Made by a program: the position numbers and the translations under genes. DNA of 44,769 nucleotides from a virus (taxonomy: Duplodnaviria; Heunggongvirae; Uroviricota; Caudoviricetes). The notes beneath the pieces were generated by a model. It was not told the origin of the DNA and searched no databases. It was given only the letters and a program-made list of their open reading frames with translations. Location: IMG/VR virus record IMGVR_UViG_2909298281_000003. One strand, written 5' to 3'. Below, in pieces: positions 5,497 to 15,215 of this stretch; position 1 is the stretch's first letter; each line of letters starts with the position of its first letter.

Positions 5497-5561
5497 AATA
5501 AGTCCTCACTATATAAAGATATTCAGTGATGAGATAAATAATCAGTTTATTACGAACGATA

Positions 5562-5924
5562 TTAACGACCTGCTGCGCGGAGTTTTCCGTCAGGTTCACC
5601 GGCAAGAGTCAGTAATTGTCCCTGGTCTTCCTGCAGAATAGTCAGGCGACCACCGCGATTGACATACATCGGCGTTTCGGTGGTGTCTTCTTCGGAAATT
5701 TTCCCGCGGTTAGTCGGGCGAACATATGAGAGTTTGTGTTTGATTTTCACACGGTTCTCATCAAACGGTTCGATTTCCAGATTGAGTGAGACCTTCCCTT
5801 TGGTTTTCGTGTTCATCACACCGGAAGCGACTTCACTGAGAACTGCGCCGATTTTGGTTTCAAATACGCCGCCGTCCAGCTCCCCGATAAATGCCTGCAC
5901 ATCAGTACTGCGTTCGCTAGCCAT
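5562..5924 (-). CDS. yfdP: Early-left operon protein, YfdP-like (120 aa from internal ATG MASERS...)
   Basis: GAGGAG ribosome-binding site 7 nt upstream of ATG at 5924-5922; the upstream 55 codons of the track ORF look non-coding. Confidence 0.55.
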   Translation of the reverse strand: MASERSTDVQAFIGELDGGVFETKIGAVLSEVASGVMNTKTKGKVSLNLEIEPFDENRVKIKHKLSYVRPTNRGKISEEDTTETPMYVNRGGRLTILQEDQGQLLTLAGEPDGKLRAAGR

Positions 5925-6394
5925 TTTGCTGCTCCTCATCATATCGACCCTGCAAGGTCGGTTGGTTTCTCCACAAAACAGAGAAGAACACCTGCGGTGG
6001 CAGCCGCCCGGATGGATTGGGTTATGAGCCCGTCGTCCGGTGATGCTCTTCTCTGTTTTGCAAAAAAGGACGGTACCAGCCGGAAGCAAGGGTACAAACT
6101 GGTACCGCCAGGACTACACACAGCATAAAGTTGTGGTGCCGGGTGCCTCCCGGTGCCTGGCGAAGGTTGCACACTAGGCGGGTGGGTATCCACAGAAGGT
6201 CGACTGTCAGCCTCAACCTTAACCCGCGTGCGCTGAGCCGCATTCACCACAACGCTAAGGATTCTCTCTGGTTGAAAATACTTAGCTGTTATGTGCCTGC
6301 TTTTAGCCACATCAGGCGAGGTGGACCTGGTTATTCCCCAACAACAAGGATTCGGTTAATCTGGATATCCCCAACAACAATAAGAGTATTCAAT

Positions 6395-6910
6395 GTGATC
6401 GCTGAATTAACGGCAGCAATGACGGCTATTCGTGAAACAGCCCAGATTGCAAAACTAATGAACGAGGCAAAAACTCAAGCTGAAGTAAATGCGGCTATTG
6501 GTGAGCTGAACTCAAAGCTTGCGTCTATTCAGCGCGAATGCGTGTCTCTCGTTGAACTGGTGGGCTCTTATCAAGAAATAAATGCTTCTCTCAAAGCTAA
6601 AATTGCAGAATTCGAAAACTTTGAGGCTCAGACGGAAGGCTATATCCTTAACCAACTTGAGTCGGGTACTTTTGTATACTCGAAGGAGGTAATCGTGAAC
6701 GGTGGCAGCATAACCATGCATCTTTGCCCAAAATGTTTTGGACAAAAGATAGTATCGATACTTCAACCATTCCCAGTTAGCGAAGATGAGCTTTTTCATA
6801 AAAGCAGATGCCTCCACTGTGAAAATAAGTTTCTGATGAATAAAAATCCGGATTACGTATCGCCTCCATCCATTGAGGAGTTGTCCAGAAAACTTAACGG
6901 CAATCTGTAG
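6395..6910 (+). CDS. Hypothetical coiled-coil protein with a C-terminal CxxC...CxxC zinc ribbon; candidate immunity-region accessory (moron) gene
   Basis: Coding-like sequence starts near GTG 6395 or ATG 6419; motifs CPKCFGQK and CLHCENK; followed by an intrinsic terminator; opposite strand to the early-left operon. Confidence 0.5.
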   Translation: MIAELTAAMTAIRETAQIAKLMNEAKTQAEVNAAIGELNSKLASIQRECVSLVELVGSYQEINASLKAKIAEFENFEAQTEGYILNQLESGTFVYSKEVIVNGGSITMHLCPKCFGQKIVSILQPFPVSEDELFHKSRCLHCENKFLMNKNPDYVSPPSIEELSRKLNGNL

Positions 6911-6950
6911 ATTACTACTGTTGTGGATATCCAGATTGTTAAAGAGCTAA

Positions 6951-6972
6951 GCGTCCTGTAGGGCGCTTTTTT
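6951..6972 (+). terminator. Rho-independent terminator after the coiled-coil gene
   Basis: Stem gcgtcc/gggcgc with tgta loop, followed by TTTTTT. Confidence 0.55.
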
Positions 6973-7058
6973 GTTGCTAACGAATCATCCTGGACTTCAT
7001 ATGCCCCAGGCGGCTACTTCGTGGGCGTCCTGCCTGTTCGTTATCTTTGATATAAAAT

Positions 7059-7121
7059 CTAACTTAACTTAGTTATCATGGCAAGAGAAAACACCAAACT
7101 TTTCTTAGTTCGGTGCCTTAG
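7059..7121. promoter_or_regulatory. OL-like operator cluster, with presumed leftward promoter
   Basis: Repeated half-site palindromes CTAAC-N4-CTTAG (7059-7072), CAAAC-N4-CTTAG (7095-7108) and a further CTTAG at 7117-7121, just 3' of cI. Confidence 0.45.
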
Positions 7122-7137
7122 TTAGAGAAGAGAGGTC

Positions 7138-7764
7138 TTAGAGTTCGTATTGAACTCCTTTGACTACACCAATGATAAGGCAATTACCATTGATAGGGAT
7201 GTTGGGATACCGAGGATTTAATGGCACTAAAAACTTTTGAGGGCCATCGATGACTAATTTTTTTACTGTAGCTTCGTTTGTTCCATCAAGTCGAGCGATG
7301 ACTATTTTTCCATGACGAGGTTCTGCATCTGGATCTACAATCACTGTTGCGCCTTCTGGTATTGTTGGGAGGCCATTAGGGTTAGTCATGGAGTCACCTT
7401 TAACCTCTAATGCAAATGAGTTATCACCAACCTTTAATGATGTATCTACCCACTTGTCCACTTCACTAAACACTTCTGCTGCCCTGCACTCAGTAAACTG
7501 CCCAGCCTGAACCCACGATATTACAGGAACTCTGCGCATGTTTGTGACGAGTTTGCCTTCAAACTCAGCACCATAAAGAATGTAATCTATTGACGTATTG
7601 AAGAACTTCGCTAATTTCGAAAGTGCCTCCCCGCCAGGGGTATTGATGTCTTTCTCCCAGTACCCCACAGCAACGTCGCTTACTCCACAAAATTTACCCA
7701 ATTCTTTCTGGGACGTTCTGGTAACTCTTCTCAGAGCTTTTATACGCTGACCAACCGTTTCCAT
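7138..7764 (-). CDS. cI: CI-type prophage repressor (HTH_XRE N-domain plus S24 LexA-like peptidase C-domain)
   Basis: 208-aa ORF; Ser/Lys dyad context (GDSM ... VKKL); divergent from cro. Confidence 0.85.
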   Translation of the reverse strand: METVGQRIKALRRVTRTSQKELGKFCGVSDVAVGYWEKDINTPGGEALSKLAKFFNTSIDYILYGAEFEGKLVTNMRRVPVISWVQAGQFTECRAAEVFSEVDKWVDTSLKVGDNSFALEVKGDSMTNPNGLPTIPEGATVIVDPDAEPRHGKIVIARLDGTNEATVKKLVIDGPQKFLVPLNPRYPNIPINGNCLIIGVVKGVQYEL

Positions 7765-7786
7765 AGGAGCACCATTTCTTTAATTG

Positions 7787-7849
7787 CTAAGTAATCTTAG
7801 TTTTTATTGACCAAAGATAGATTTGTAATTAGCATCTAACAAAACTTAG
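7787..7849. promoter_or_regulatory. OR-like operator/promoter region (PRM/PR) between cI and cro
   Basis: Perfect palindrome CTAAGtaatCTTAG at 7787-7800 and CTAACaaaaCTTAG at 7836-7849; TTGACC -35-like at 7807-7812; GGAGGG ribosome-binding site before cro. Confidence 0.5.
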
Positions 7850-7861
7850 TTTGGAGGGCGT

Positions 7862-8062
7862 ATGACAACTGACGATATCGAAAGCTACTTCGGCAGTATT
7901 GAGAAAGTTGCTGCTTTTTTCGGCATAACAACTGAAGCCGTTTATCAGTGGCGAAACCGTCCGGGCCAGTTAATTCCAAAAGGACGTGCAGCAGAAGCTG
8001 CATATAGAACTTGCGGACGGTTGCCATTTAAACCTGAGCTTTATGAAAAATCTAATGGATAA
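7862..8062 (+). CDS. cro: Cro-like HTH regulator (66 aa)
   Basis: Small HTH ORF divergent from the repressor, ribosome-binding site GGAGGG. Confidence 0.75.
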   Translation: MTTDDIESYFGSIEKVAAFFGITTEAVYQWRNRPGQLIPKGRAAEAAYRTCGRLPFKPELYEKSNG

Positions 8063-8651
8063 ATCGATTAACAGAAACCACAGAACGATGAGGCTAACCG
8101 TGGGTAAGCATCACTGGAAAGTAGAAAAACAGCCTGAGTGGTACGTGAAAGCTGTCAGAAAAACTATCGCAAAGTTGCCGGGTGGTTACGCTGAAGCAGC
8201 TGACTGGCTGGATGTAACAGAGAACGCATTATTTAACCGCCTTCGTGCCGATGGCGATCAGATTTTCCCGCTGGGATGGGCAATGATTTTGCAACGTGCT
8301 GGTGGAACTCACTTCATTGCTGACGCAGTGGCGCAGTCTGCAAATGGCGTCTTTGTGTCTCTTCCTGACGTCGAGGATGTGGACAACGCCGATATTAACC
8401 AGCGCCTGCTGGAAGTCATTGAACAGATCGGCAGTTATTCAAAACAGATTCGTTCAGCAATTGAAGACGGTGTAGTGGAACCGCATGAGAAGACAGCAAT
8501 TAACGACGAGCTGTACCTCTCAATTTCGAAGCTGCAGGAGCATGCAGCACTGGTCTATAAAATTTTTTGCATTTCAGAAAGTAATGACGCCCGCGAGTGT
8601 GCAGCTCCGGGCGCCGTGGCGTGTCGTGACTGTGGAGAAACTAACGCATGA
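8043..8651 (+). CDS. CII-like regulatory protein (CP76-type, about 202 aa)
   Basis: Start ATG 8043 overlaps the cro stop; position downstream of cro; family assignment from memory. Confidence 0.45.
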
Positions 8652-8986
8652 ACAGTTTAACAACACACTACCGTCGCTCGCAACTGATTGCGCTTCCTGT
8701 ACCGGGTGGAAAAGCGAAGGTGGAGTATTGCTATGCAGTAAATGTACCAGGTGACAGGGAAATTGTAACCCACAGCTTTGCAGAGTGGGCTGTGGGTGAT
8801 TTCAACCGGCAGAAGGAGACAGTCCTTTGCGACAAGTTAACCGCTGGTTCAAAGATCACTACGGAGTGCCCGTCAGAGTCATTCGTTGGGAGCCGGAAAC
8901 ACAACGTGTTATCTACCTCCGCGAAGGCTATGAGCATGAGTGCTTCAGCCCGCTCGAACAGTTTCGTCGTAAATTCAGGGAAATAG
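8648..8986 (+). CDS. Hypothetical protein; probable frameshift, with the C-terminal half continuing in another frame to 9006
   Basis: N-terminal 57 aa look protein-like, then the frame becomes Ser-rich junk while the adjacent frame 8800-9006 reads [44 protein letters not shown]. Confidence 0.4.
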
Positions 8987-8995
8987 AGGTCGGTC

Positions 8996-9922
8996 ATGAG
9001 CACTAAATTAACCGGCTATGTATGGGATGGTTGCGCTGCATCAGGCATGAAATTATCCAGCGTGGCAATTATGGCCCGCCTGGCTGATTTCAGTAATGAC
9101 GAAGGTGTGTGCTGGCCATCAATTGAAACCATTGCCCGCCAGATTGGCGCGGGGATGAGTACCGTCAGAACGGCTATCGCACGGCTGGAAGCAGAAGGCT
9201 GGTTAACGCGTAGGGCGCGTCGCCAGGGTAACCGCAATGCGTCGAATGTTTATCAGCTTAACGTTGCGAAGCTTCAGGCAGCGGCATTTTCTCAACTGTC
9301 AGATTCTGACCCGTCAAAATCTGACCCGTCAAAATTTGATGCGTCGAAATCTGGCAAAAAAGCGGGTTTTCACCCGTCAGAATCTGGTGGGGATCCGTCA
9401 GTAAAATCAAAACATGATCCGTCAGATAAAAAAACTTCTCGTCCGGACGCTTCGCAACCGGACACGCAGACGGCTGAACAGGATTTTTTAACTCGCCATC
9501 CTGATGCGGTTGTATTCAGCCCTAAAAAGCGCCAGTGGGGGACGCAGGATGATTTGACCTGCGCACAGTGGCTCTGGAAAAAAATCATCGCCCTGTACGA
9601 GCATGCCGCCGAATGTGACGGCGAGGTGGTTCGTCCCAAAGAACCGAACTGGACAGCCTGGGCAAACGAAATTCGCCTGATGTGTGTGCAGGATGGTCGT
9701 ACTCATAAACAAATCTGCGAGATGTACAGCCGCGTCAGTCGCGATCCGTTCTGGTGCCGTAACGTGCTCAGCCCGTCGAAGCTGCGGGAAAAATGGGATG
9801 AGCTTTCCCTGCGCTTATCGCCGTCCGTCAGCACGTACACCGAAAAACGCGAAGACCCGTACTTCAAAGCCAGTTACGACAACGTGGACTACAGCCAGAT
9901 CCCGGCAGGATTCAGGGGGTGA
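8996..9922 (+). CDS. Replication initiator, O-like (HTH N-domain, iteron-containing linker)
   Basis: 308-aa ORF; N-terminal winged-helix region; internal iteron array encoding the DPSKSDPSKFDASKS repeats. Confidence 0.75.
   Translation: MSTKLTGYVWDGCAASGMKLSSVAIMARLADFSNDEGVCWPSIETIARQIGAGMSTVRTAIARLEAEGWLTRRARRQGNRNASNVYQLNVAKLQAAAFSQLSDSDPSKSDPSKFDASKSGKKAGFHPSESGGDPSVKSKHDPSDKKTSRPDASQPDTQTAEQDFLTRHPDAVVFSPKKRQWGTQDDLTCAQWLWKKIIALYEHAAECDGEVVRPKEPNWTAWANEIRLMCVQDGRTHKQICEMYSRVSRDPFWCRNVLSPSKLREKWDELSLRLSPSVSTYTEKREDPYFKASYDNVDYSQIPAGFRG
9305..9430. repeat. Iteron array (putative replication origin) inside the O-like gene
   Basis: Six direct copies of core CCGTCA(A/G)(A/T)AAT: ctgacccgtcaaaat x2, gcgtcgaaatctg, cacccgtcagaatctg, gatccgtcagtaaaatc, gatccgtcagataaa. 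Confidence 0.65.
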
Positions 9923-9924
9923 TC

Positions 9925-10413
9925 ATGAGTCTTTTGAATGACGTTCAGAAATTCATTGAAGCCCATCCGGGGTGTACTTCCGGAGACATTGCGGATGCTT
10001 TTGCAGGTTACTCACGACAGCGCGTTCTGCAGTCAGCAAGCAAGTTACGTCAGAGTGGGCGTGTGGCTCACCGTTGTGAAGGGGATACACGCAGACATTT
10101 CCCGCGGCTGACTGAGATACCGCAGGAGCCGGAACCGCAACCAGTTCGTGAATCCAGACCTGTGCGCAATTTCTATGTCGGCACTAACGATCCCCGGGTG
10201 ATTTTGTGCCTGACCCGCCAGGCGGAAGAACTGGAGTCCAGGGGCTTATACCGTCGTGCTGCAACGGTGTGGATGGCGGCATTCCGTGAAAGCCACTCCC
10301 AGCAAGAGCGAAACAATTTTCTTGCGCGTCGTGAGCGGTGTTTACGGAAAAGCAGCAAGCGCGCTGTATCGGGTGAAGAGTGGTATCTGTCAGGGAATTA
10401 CGTGGGGGCTTAA
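9925..10413 (+). CDS. Hypothetical protein, possibly a PerC-like regulator
   Basis: 162-aa ORF, ATG at 9925 just after the O-like stop; C-terminal LYRRAATVW motif. Confidence 0.4.
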   Translation: MSLLNDVQKFIEAHPGCTSGDIADAFAGYSRQRVLQSASKLRQSGRVAHRCEGDTRRHFPRLTEIPQEPEPQPVRESRPVRNFYVGTNDPRVILCLTRQAEELESRGLYRRAATVWMAAFRESHSQQERNNFLARRERCLRKSSKRAVSGEEWYLSGNYVGA

Positions 10414-10739
10414 TGACGACGTTAACTCAATGCCAGCAGCAGGTGCTGGATATGCTGATTTCTTACCAGAAAGAACGTGGCTTCCCGCCAACCAATCAGG
10501 AGGTGGCTACCATGCTGGGATACCGTTCAGTGAATGCAGCGGTGGAGCATCTTCGCGCACTGGAGAAAAAAGGCGTCATCACGATAAAGCGTGGCGTGGC
10601 CCGGGGCATCACGCTTCATACCGCGGTGAAGGACGACGACAGCGAGGTGGCCGGGATTATCCGCGCACTGCTTGCTGGTGAGGAAAACGCCAGGCTGCGT
10701 GCAGCCCACTGGTTACATGAGAGGGGGCTGAAAGTATGA
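10413..10739 (+). CDS. LexA-N-terminal-like DNA-binding protein without peptidase domain
   Basis: Start overlaps previous stop (TAATG); winged-helix motif QEVATMLGYRSVNAAVEHLRALEKKGVI. Confidence 0.5.
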   Translation: MTTLTQCQQQVLDMLISYQKERGFPPTNQEVATMLGYRSVNAAVEHLRALEKKGVITIKRGVARGITLHTAVKDDDSEVAGIIRALLAGEENARLRAAHWLHERGLKV

Positions 10740-13529: not shown

Positions 13530-14627
13530 TTAGAACTGGTAAACCAGACCTACAGCAACGATGTCATCAGTGCTTACACCGAGTGCTTTAGTGAAGTCAT
13601 TTTTGTCAAGCAGGTTGATTTTGTAATCAACGAAAGTAGACATATTTTTGTTGAAGTAATAGGTTGCACCTACATCAACATATTTGACTAAGTCCTGATC
13701 GCCCCATACTCCAAGATCCTTACCTTTAGATTGCAGGTAAGCAACGGACGGACGCAGACCGAAATCGAACTGATATTGTGCAACAGCTTCGAAGTTTTGA
13801 GCTTTATTAGCAACGAAGTGATCAGCAAATACAGTCATATTCTGGGTTTCAGAATAGGTAGTGGCCAGGTAAATGTTGTTAGCGTCATATTTCAGACCTG
13901 CGGCCCAAACTTCTGCATTTTTACCGGAAGCAAATACTTCAGGAAGAACTTTCCCTGCATTAACTTGAGTGTCGGTACGATCAGATTTCGCATAAGTTGC
14001 ACCGATACCGAATCCTTCGTATTCATAGGTAGCAGAGAAACCGAAGCCATCACCGTTACCTTCGGTGTAGTTATCGAAATCGCTACGATCGTTTTTGCCT
14101 TGGTACTGAGCAGCAAAGTTCAGACCATCAACCAGACCAAAGAAGTCGTTGTTACGATAGGTTGCAACACCAGTGGTGCGACCAGTCATGAACACATCTG
14201 TTTGGGTCCAGGTATCGCCACCGAATTCTGGCAGAACGTCAGTCCACGCACCGATGTCGTATGCTACACCGTAGTTACGGCCGTAATCGATTGAGCCGTA
14301 GTCACCGAATTTCAGGCCTGCAAATGCAAGACGGGTTTTGTCTTTGGAGGAACCTTGAGATTCAGCGCGGTTGCCTTTGAATTCATATTCCCACTGACCG
14401 AAACCAGTCAGCTGATCGTTGATTTGGGTTTCGCCTTTGAAGCCCAGACGAACATAAGTAGTATCACCATCATCTGCATCGTTAGAGGAAAAGTAGTGCT
14501 TGGCATTAACTTTCCCGTACAGATCCAGCTTGTTACTGTCTTTATTATAAATTTCAGCTGCCTGAGCAGACATCGCCATCAGTACTGATGCAGCTACAGC
14601 AGAAATTGCCACTGTTAATTTTTTCAT
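13530..14627 (-). CDS. nmpC: Phage-encoded OmpC-family porin (NmpC/Lc-like)
   Basis: 365-aa ORF with signal peptide and C-terminal aromatic residue (…YQF). Confidence 0.9.
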
Positions 14628-15215
14628 CGTGAGCCCTTTTTTTTGAACTATTATTAAAAAATGATGTCACTGCGCGATAAATATTCATCTAATCAATGTG
14701 ATTATTTCAAGATGTAAGTTTTAGTTTCTCATTTAATTTGTGAAGTAGATCTCTATTTTTATCTGAACTTTTTCTATCGAAACCTATTTATGGCTCTTAT
14801 TTGAACAAAAATAAATCTATTAGCTAATTTATATTAATGGCTGTTATTTATGGTGGTTCTATAATTCGTCTGTTTAATTTAAACCAGCTAAAAATAACAC
14901 TGGAAATTATTTATTGGTTATTTGTTGAAGTTTTCTTATGTATTTGTGGTGATGTTTTGAACACTCGGTAGCATTCTCATAAATATCATTCAGTGGTTTA
15001 CGTACGTAAAAAATTGGTTATGCTGTTAAGAGTGGTTACTTCGTCACACAGCTTAAACCCGCCGTCGAGCTGGTTTTTCCATTTTTTGAGTCTCGATATT
15101 AGCTGATAACTCAATACCTGAGTTATTCACTGACTCGGAGTCAGTTACGTTTCTGCTTTTTTGCGATACGTTGTATTCCCTCAATTTACACCCGCTTTGT
15201 CTGCGAGGTGGGGTT

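Follow-up and report, generated by a model that had tools for sequence, protein, structure and literature searches.

A P22-type immunity region with probable CTAAG-N4-CTTAG operators in a lambdoid Escherichia coli prophage

In the viral record IMGVR_UViG_2909298281_000003 (44,769 bp, analysed at full length and referred to here as the window), a lambdoid Escherichia coli prophage, 14-bp sites of the form CTAAG-N4-CTTAG flank the repressor gene cI on both sides, and we put at roughly 85% the probability that they are the CI/Cro operators of a P22-type immunity switch with an immC-like build. An earlier reading of the sequence alone (the original prediction) had proposed these sites as defining the likely CI/Cro operator specificity, a proposal now supported by comparative evidence, namely a P22-like layout, conservation in 17 relatives and covariation between operator arms and recognition helices. 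The immunity region belongs to the P22/21 family and is an ordinary type with a different operator specificity that has not previously been studied. Our comparison locus for P22 was a curated, annotated record (L004). The switch genes, the right operator (OR) sites and the predicted rightward (PR) and repressor-maintenance (PRM) promoters are listed below, with scores from the weight matrix described in the text.

7138-7764, minus strand: cI repressor gene, 208 amino acids, Pfam HTH_3 and Peptidase_S24
7862-8062, plus strand: cro gene, 66 amino acids, divergent from cI, Pfam P22_Cro (PF14549) at 42.8 bits against a cut-off of 30.2
7785-7802, no strand: OR3-like operator (core CTAAGTAATCTTAG, 7787-7800), nearest cI, 0 mismatches, matrix score 22.3, at the P22 OR3 position
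7810-7827, no strand: OR2-like weak operator (core CAAAGATAGATTTG, 7812-7825), overlapping the PR -35 and aligned to P22 OR2
7834-7851, no strand: OR1-like operator (core CTAACAAAACTTAG, 7836-7849), 1 mismatch, matrix score 24.2, at the P22 OR1 position
7807-7835, plus strand: predicted PR from a promoter scan, -35 TTGACC (7807-7812), 17-bp spacer, -10 TAGCAT (7830-7835)
7794-7799, minus strand: predicted PRM -10, TAAGAT, inside the OR3-like site

Over its whole length (205 amino acids aligned), the repressor shares 47% identity with P22 c2. Its N-terminal domain matched the structures of the P22 c2 N-terminal domain (2R1J, 1ADR and 3JXB; E about 5e-10), and its C-terminal domain matched that of lambda cI (E = 5e-28) with the VQAG, GDSM and KKL motifs aligned. 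The predicted cleavage site Ala87-Gly88 (VQA87-G88) and the dyad of Ser125 (GDS125M) and Lys168 (VK168K) align with A111-G112, S149 and K192 of lambda cI, and by these sequence features the protein qualifies as a putative LexA/CI-type repressor of peptidase family S24 with RecA-stimulated autocleavage. In the phage collection, the nearest characterised repressors were those of phage 21 (48%) and P22 (47%), and a repressor at least 89% identical was encoded in only five phage records (vB_EcoS-569R4, Kati, vB_EcoM-689R6, mEp460_4F5 and LLS). The Cro protein is 30% identical to P22 Cro, and its recognition helix, EAVYQWR, is kept in relatives.

The five strings on which the original prediction was based all lie where it had placed them, CTAAGTAATCTTAG at 7787-7800 and CTAACAAAACTTAG at 7836-7849 between cI and cro, and CTAACTTAACTTAG at 7059-7072, CAAACTTTTCTTAG at 7095-7108 and CTTAG at 7117-7121 just 3′ of cI. 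The first of these had been called a perfect 14-bp palindrome, a description that fits its 5-bp arms, which are symmetric, but not its centre, TAAT, which is not self-complementary, leaving 10 of 14 positions symmetric; the second, with one mismatch to CTAAG-N4-CTTAG, is indeed a near-copy. Among the related sites 3′ of cI, 7059-7072 and 7095-7108 occupy positions like those of OL1 and OL2, the first two left operator (OL) sites of P22, whereas 7117-7121 is not conserved.

The original prediction had proposed a motif search across the prophage, and this search found sites with at most one mismatch only beside cI, not across the window. The pattern CTAAGNNNNCTTAG with up to one mismatch had three matches in the 44,769 bp, all three in non-coding DNA beside cI, against a mean of 0.53 in shuffled sequences, of which 3 of 100 reached three matches. 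With up to two mismatches, the pattern was not enriched in the window (7 matches, fewer than the shuffle mean of 10.4), so that 7095-7108 is not significant by pattern matching alone, and the case for significance is made by the matches with one mismatch or none, by clustering and by conservation. The clustering is pronounced, as 7 of the 17 CTTAG/CTAAG pentamers in the window fall within the 195 non-coding base pairs flanking cI (7040-7137 and 7765-7861), where 0.074 were expected (Poisson P = 2e-12) and shuffled flanks contained 0.41 on average and 4 at most. In addition, a weight matrix built solely from the OR3-like and OR1-like sites of other genomes ranked 7057-7074 (25.9), 7834-7851 (24.2), 7785-7802 (22.3) and 7093-7110 (14.3) as the four top matches among about 44,750 positions of the window, compared with a best shuffle score of 10.2 on average and 16.4 at most. 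The next-ranked matches, at 14822 (12.2) and 14687 (5.6), were considered as additional CI sites and rejected, their scores lying within the shuffle range. Both fall in AT-rich DNA upstream of a phage-borne porin gene (OmpC/Lc-like, 365 amino acids, 13530-14627, minus strand), whose upstream region, 14628-15000, is very AT-rich.

Between cI and cro, the arrangement is that of P22 immC and of the co-specific coliphage 21, with the same gene order and orientation, a c2-type repressor, a divergently encoded Cro of the P22_Cro family and three two-fold OR sites at P22-like spacing, the middle one weak. The OR sites are 25 and 24 bp apart from centre to centre, nearly identical to the 25 and 23 bp of P22, and each consists, as in P22, of 5-bp arms ending in AAG/CTT around an A/T-rich 4-bp centre. 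The middle site had not been listed in the original prediction; the PR -35 sequence TTGAC is fused to it in both phages (TTGACTAAAGATTCCTTTAGT here and TTGACCAAAGATAGATTTGTA in P22), which, with the P22-like spacing, supports a third, weak putative operator at 7812-7825 between the two listed sites. The predicted PR has the geometry of the annotated P22 PR and would start near 7842, upstream of a Shine-Dalgarno sequence, GGAGGG, at 7854-7859; the OR1-like site adjoins its -10 and covers the predicted start. The PRM -10 hexamer TAAGAT is the same hexamer in the same place, inside OR3, as in P22 (-10 at 677-682 and the RM start at 688 of L004), and a predicted PRM start at about 7788 would give cI a leader of about 24 nt, compared with 4 nt in P22. 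The expectation that the sites would place PR, PRM and the leftward promoter PL thus agrees with P22, as sites occur at the P22 OR3, OR1, OL1 and OL2 positions relative to promoters and genes.

To follow these features in relatives, we used a single scan of species-representative genomes, which gave a graded series of prophage repressors 64-90% identical to that of the window, from Enterobacter, Kosakonia, Kluyvera, Serratia, Rahnella, Yersinia, Rouxiella, Providencia and Proteus in addition to E. coli phages. The recognition helix, GVSDVAVGYWEKD, is kept in all of them with minor variants. An alignment of 17 distinct OR regions, spanning the OR3-like to the OR1-like site, contains no gap, and the mean information is 1.66 bits in the arms, 1.39 bits in the site centres and 1.21 bits elsewhere, with a cI leader that could not be aligned. 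Near-invariance is seen in the arms, in the PR hexamers and in the AT dinucleotide completing the PRM -10; the -35 TTGAC of PR is invariant, and its -10 reads TAATAT or TAGTAT in relatives. The same AT, in the centre of the OR3-like site, where it completes TAAGAT, is invariant in 17 of 17 regions, whereas centres elsewhere vary, including that of the OR1-like site, which keeps its arms. The OR2-like site comes nearer to the consensus in some relatives (CTAATAAAGATTAG in L011, TCAACATAACTTAG in L012 and CTAAGATAGATTGA in L003), and the OL1-like site is identical in eleven loci (L002, L003, L005-L009, L011, L021, L023 and L024) despite divergent flanks.

Among the Serratia, Rouxiella and related loci, six (L010, L013, L015, L016, L017 and L026) have a repressor of the same clade and OR3/OR1-like sites without a P22-type cro after them. 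In L010, L015 and L016, the place of cro is taken by a protein starting MRD...W(G)..., which by eye looks like a Q-type antiterminator, and the Rouxiella-group loci L013, L015-L017 and L026 have no OL sites 3′ of cI. This suggests that the Rouxiella-group loci have a different switch architecture with the same operator specificity.

Operator specificity was compared in more distant homologues from the same scan, a test independent of the window. Three helix groups were found, all with the 5-N4-5 geometry in the same places. In P22 and in Photorhabdus and Xenorhabdus prophages, the repressor helix S[NH]VAISQWE and the Cro helix SDAAVSQWK accompany TTAAG arms; in the clade studied here, SDVAVGYWE and EAVYQWR accompany CTAAG arms; and in Morganella/Proteus prophages, the repressor helix NRVTVTGWE accompanies GTAGG/GTAAG arms. 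Relative to P22 c2 (SNVAISQWE), the repressor helix SDVAVGYWE has D30 for N32, G34 for S36 and Y35 for Q37, and the Cro helix EAVYQWR has Y for the S of AAVSQWK in P22 Cro. Val33 of P22 c2, which packs against the methyl groups of TTAA (PMC2995052), is conserved as Val31. The P22 repressor contacts operator positions 2-7 and 12-17, not the central 4 bp, and a T-to-C change at operator position 3 lowers its binding to the non-specific level (PMC4267663). The strong sites of the window have C at position 3/16, or G at the symmetric position, in place of the TTAAG specificity of P22/21, which supports the view that the putative operator specificity is a one-base-pair variant of the P22/21 type (C:G for T:A at position 3/16) and not an unrelated one. 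We infer a distinct immunity specificity derived from the P22/21 type; given the change at position 3/16 together with the altered recognition helices of CI and Cro, the phage is predicted to be, and should be, heteroimmune to P22 and 21. The immunity type may represent a natural switch of specificity from P22 by a single base pair (T to C at position 3), with Tyr substituted in parallel in CI and Cro.

On the other side of cI, the OL region overlaps the end of the repressor transcript and comprises the following features.

7057-7074, no strand: OL1-like operator (core CTAACTTAACTTAG, 7059-7072), between the PL -10 and -35, matrix score 25.9, the best in the window
7093-7110, no strand: OL2-like operator (core CAAACTTTTCTTAG, 7095-7108), 2 mismatches, matrix score 14.3, the fourth in the window
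7056-7084, minus strand: predicted PL from a promoter scan, -35 TTGCCA (7084-7079), 17-bp spacer, -10 TAGATT (7061-7056)
7083-7115, minus strand: probable intrinsic cI terminator, hairpin 7115-7092 with the OL2-like site at its apex, then a U tract, 7091-7083

The two sites at OL1/OL2-like positions follow the repressor gene directly on its 3′ side, the OL1-like one set between the predicted PL hexamers as P22 OL1 is, and they are 36 bp apart from centre to centre, compared with 35 bp in P22. The predicted PL would start leftward near 7049, and the P22 PL -10, TAAATT, overlaps OL1 at the homologous place. P22 has three OL sites, and two are recognisable here alongside a PL-like promoter. As candidates for a third, we rejected the half-sites 7117-7121 and 7137-7141, the latter overlapping the cI stop codon, as both are lost in L003 and L006-L009, and also GTTCGTTATCTTTG (7036-7049), which has four mismatches and is not conserved. 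The lone half-site 7117-7121 is likewise lost in mEp460_4F5 and in several prophages with the same recognition helix; given its loss in phages and prophages with the same repressor, it was excluded from the system.

Several observations weigh against the operator reading. Taken alone, the OR2-like site scores 4.0 with the matrix (rank 10, within noise) and matches the consensus poorly; the PRM -35 region within it (ATCTAT, 7817-7822) is very poor; and promoter-like matches were no commoner in the region than in shuffles in the promoter scan (3 versus 3.3). On the left, the OL2-like site has a matrix score within the shuffle range and overlaps a conserved RNA hairpin, a possible part-cause of its conservation; a third OL site was not detected 3′ of cI, where P22 has three; and the predicted PL points, awkwardly, into a convergent open reading frame (ORF) on the plus strand, 6395-6910, and its terminator hairpin before the left-operon genes are reached. 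Finally, the operator sequences were not found in the literature searched.

The doubt about the OL2-like site leads to the alternative that survives best, although we think it unlikely, in which 7095-7108 is kept only as the apex of the cI terminator and PL is controlled through the single OL1-like site. The terminator itself is probable, as the hairpin (RNAfold, -15.1 kcal/mol) lies directly after the cI stop codon and just before the PL -35 and is followed by UUUUCUCUU, the U tract running into the -35. A simple terminator scan did not flag this hairpin, which was found by folding instead. Closer relatives have equivalent hairpins (-11 to -21 kcal/mol), in most cases with a U-rich tract behind them, and a compensatory change (CACC/GGTG to CATC/GATG) occurs in L005, which, together with the two mismatches of the OL2-like site and its matrix score inside the shuffle range, favours a purely terminating role. 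However, the right arm CTTAG sits in the loop, where a terminator would not constrain the sequence, and most relatives retain it (L007 has ATTAG) in spite of a variable centre; a full consensus site stands at the same position in Yersinia, Providencia and Proteus relatives; and the position and spacing match those of P22 OL2. The two roles are not exclusive, and we think that the sequence points to their coexistence at 7095-7108.

A second alternative starts from the orientation of PL and treats the sites 3′ of cI as auxiliary operators, serving for example OL-OR looping, without a promoter, the true early-left promoter lying at about 6290-6350, beyond the convergent ORF. In its favour, the predicted PL faces this ORF and a terminator at 6949-6968, its hexamers TTGCCA and TAGATT match at just 9 of 12 positions, and an STnc100-like RNA and yfdP/Q/R-type genes begin only to the left of 6283. 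We nevertheless consider it quite improbable, as the PL -35 reads TTGACC in LLS and most relatives, at a fixed distance from the OL1-like site, and the PL hexamers sit exactly at the place of the annotated P22 PL. Furthermore, a conserved structured element begins about 5-10 nt past the predicted PL start in phages with many different repressors; in some phages, such as mEp460_4F5 and SfV, a minus-strand ORF directly follows this element; and neither a CTAAG-N4-CTTAG site nor a good promoter was found near 6290-6350.

Given that several DNA-binding proteins are encoded nearby and that the assignment to CI and Cro is comparative, the motif could also be bound by another regulator, such as the cII-like protein (8091-8651), a LexA-like protein (10380-10739) or a host factor. 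This is very improbable, as the half-sites covary with the recognition helices of both CI and Cro across clades, the geometry equals that of solved P22 c2-operator complexes (PMC4267663), and cI and the sites are kept where the rightward neighbour genes differ, for example in L010 and L013-L016. Chance similarity among AT-rich promoter sequences, for which the two-mismatch pattern speaks in being no commoner than in shuffles (7 versus 10.4), is effectively refuted by the comparative data, that is, by the pentamer clustering, the matrix ranking and the conservation across genera.

Returning to the operator reading, we propose a mechanism modelled on the P22/lambda paradigm; site placement, conservation and helix covariation are the data behind it, and we infer the binding, occupancy order, PRM activation and cooperativity by analogy. 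The c2-like, RecA-cleavable repressor and the P22-type Cro, each as a dimer, would bind 18-bp two-fold sites with the consensus AACTAAG-N4-CTTAGTT, the 5-bp arms being read by the recognition helix and the A/T-rich 4-bp centre probably not being contacted. Repressor on the OR1-like and OR2-like sites would cover the PR start and -35 and switch off cro and the rightward operon, while repressor on the OR2-like site, over the weak PRM -35, would probably activate PRM. The OR3-like site would be occupied first by Cro, or by excess repressor, turning off PRM and hence cI. On the left, repressor on the two OL sites flanking the PL -35 would block the early-left transcript, with the promoter-distal site doubling as the tip of the cI terminator hairpin, and RecA-stimulated autocleavage at Ala87-Gly88 would lead to prophage induction.

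Compared with P22, the predicted switch differs in its arms (CTAAG here, TTAAG in P22), in the longer predicted cI leader, in the number of recognisable OL sites and in the terminator, which in P22 is separate and GC-rich and here is merged with the OL2-like site; in addition, no gene-24/N homologue or boxB was recognised downstream of PL. With lambda it shares a set of three operators separating the divergently transcribed cI and cro, back-to-back PR and PRM promoters whose starts are some 80 bp apart, OL and PL beyond cI, and a homologous S24 C-terminal domain. By contrast, lambda has 17-bp operators of unrelated sequence, an N-terminal domain matching a different fold family and a cI mRNA without a leader, and its rex genes separate cI from PL. 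In phage 434, the operators are 14-bp two-fold sites whose outer arms are read directly and whose non-contacted centre is read indirectly (PMC2995052), resembling the directly read arms and non-contacted centre proposed here. The 434 arms, however, are ACAA/TTGT around a 6-bp centre, and the repressor studied here matches the P22 c2 N-terminal domain, the 434 repressor not being among its matches in the Protein Data Bank.

Of 5,426 complete E. coli genomes, 517 carry the module 7040-7870, ST131 strains among them, and in the records inspected it is annotated merely as "LexA family protein" and "Cro/CI family transcriptional regulator", with the operators unannotated. Judged by titles and abstracts, papers that mention mEp460 do so only in passing. 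Known operators would allow co-immune prophages to be predicted and reporter or induction assays to be designed, and the immunity type is a natural case in which to test how a repressor/Cro pair of the P22 type re-tunes its specificity at the contacted position 3, for which quantitative P22 data already exist. Against the lambda/P22 paradigm, the switch itself adds nothing conceptually new. The features downstream of PL are as follows.

6976-7044, minus strand: conserved 69-nt structured element, a candidate PL leader RNA, a few bases past the predicted PL start at about 7049 and outside the coordinates of the original prediction
6938-6947, minus strand: boxA-like GCTCTTTAAC, the sole copy in the window when both strands were searched by regular expression, located about 30 nt downstream of the 69-nt element
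6395-6910, plus strand: ORF of 171 amino acids convergent with cI and PL, its product having an N-terminal coiled coil and CxxC...CxxC motifs, phrog_1244 (unknown function)
6060-6283, minus strand: STnc100 (RF02076)/PasD-like small RNA candidate, a full-length match at 41.1 bits, below the gathering threshold of 47 (E = 9e-7)

Across at least 49 phage records and more than 80 viral contigs, the 69-nt element accompanies unrelated repressors; the phages include SfV, SfII, SfIV, ST64B, ZF40, mEp237 and YeP1. In the records inspected, it shares the strand of the repressor gene and lies just past the 3′ end of that gene, where no feature is annotated. A covariance model (R1) built from 14 copies gave 82 matches, 70 of them distinct, in viral contigs and loci. 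The element has two helices, in which 95.3% of cells are paired and 209 are double-change cells, compared with 54 after shuffling and 16-29 with slid partners, and its 24-nt core, GGCAGGACGCCCACGAAGUAGCCG, is near-invariant. Wobble pairs left its strand unsettled (12 G:U versus 15 A:C). An Rfam scan of 5500-9000 at E values up to 1 gave nothing at the element and only the sub-threshold STnc100 match, and the core sequence was not found in the literature searched.

In HK022, putL is a structured RNA of about 65-70 nt directly downstream of PL and independent of the first downstream gene (PMC9378689), and the 69-nt element resembles it and the putL-like RNA of HK639 (the latter from annotation) in size and in its place just past PL. 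Identity with put was rejected, as model R1 found nothing in HK022 and only a chance-level 11-bit match outside the immunity region of HK639. The HK639 putL-like RNA differs in being unrelated in sequence and, unlike HK022 put, the element is present in a single copy in the window without a putR-like counterpart and coexists with a boxA-boxB nut site in L032. We therefore advance only as a doubtful possibility, by analogy, that the PL transcript begins with a previously undescribed, strongly covarying 69-nt RNA, common to more than 100 phage contigs whose repressors are unrelated, that may act as a put-analogous cis element modifying the action of RNA polymerase or Rho. If real, such an antitermination-like RNA would account for the passage of PL transcription through the convergent ORF and the terminators in a phage in which no N gene was recognised.

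The boxA-like sequence GCTCTTTAAC continues as AGCTCTTTAACAA, which is near the rrn boxA consensus. It also lies downstream of the 69-nt element in L001, L008, L009, L030 and L032, with a P22-like boxB in addition in L032; in the window itself, neither a boxB nor an N-like gene was recognised. The ORF 6395-6910 is bracketed by 26-nt inverted repeats (6358-6383 and 6912-6937, 85% complementary), with the terminator at 6949-6968 beyond, and may be a moron or an invertible cassette. This slot is filled by different genes in other phages. Neither this ORF nor the yfdP-like ORF had a PADLOC match, and PHROGs placed both in families of unknown function alone. An exact 13-nt direct repeat, TCCCCAACAACAA, stands at 6335-6347 and 6368-6380, upstream of the ORF, and a similar CCCCATCAACAAG follows boxA on the other strand in L001.

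Upstream of the yfdP-like gene, the STnc100-like RNA has a terminator-like hairpin at its end; the PasD and STnc100 prophage small RNA families are related, according to a preprint (bioRxiv 10.64898/2026.05.13.724894). To the right of the switch, two further genes for putative DNA-binding proteins are present.

8091-8651, downstream neighbour of cro: gene for a CII (CP76)-like protein, by domain match
10380-10739, plus strand: gene for a small protein of 119 amino acids in the replication/nin region, resembling the LexA N-terminal DNA-binding domain without the protease domain

The product of the latter is labelled "LexA-like protein" in related phages.

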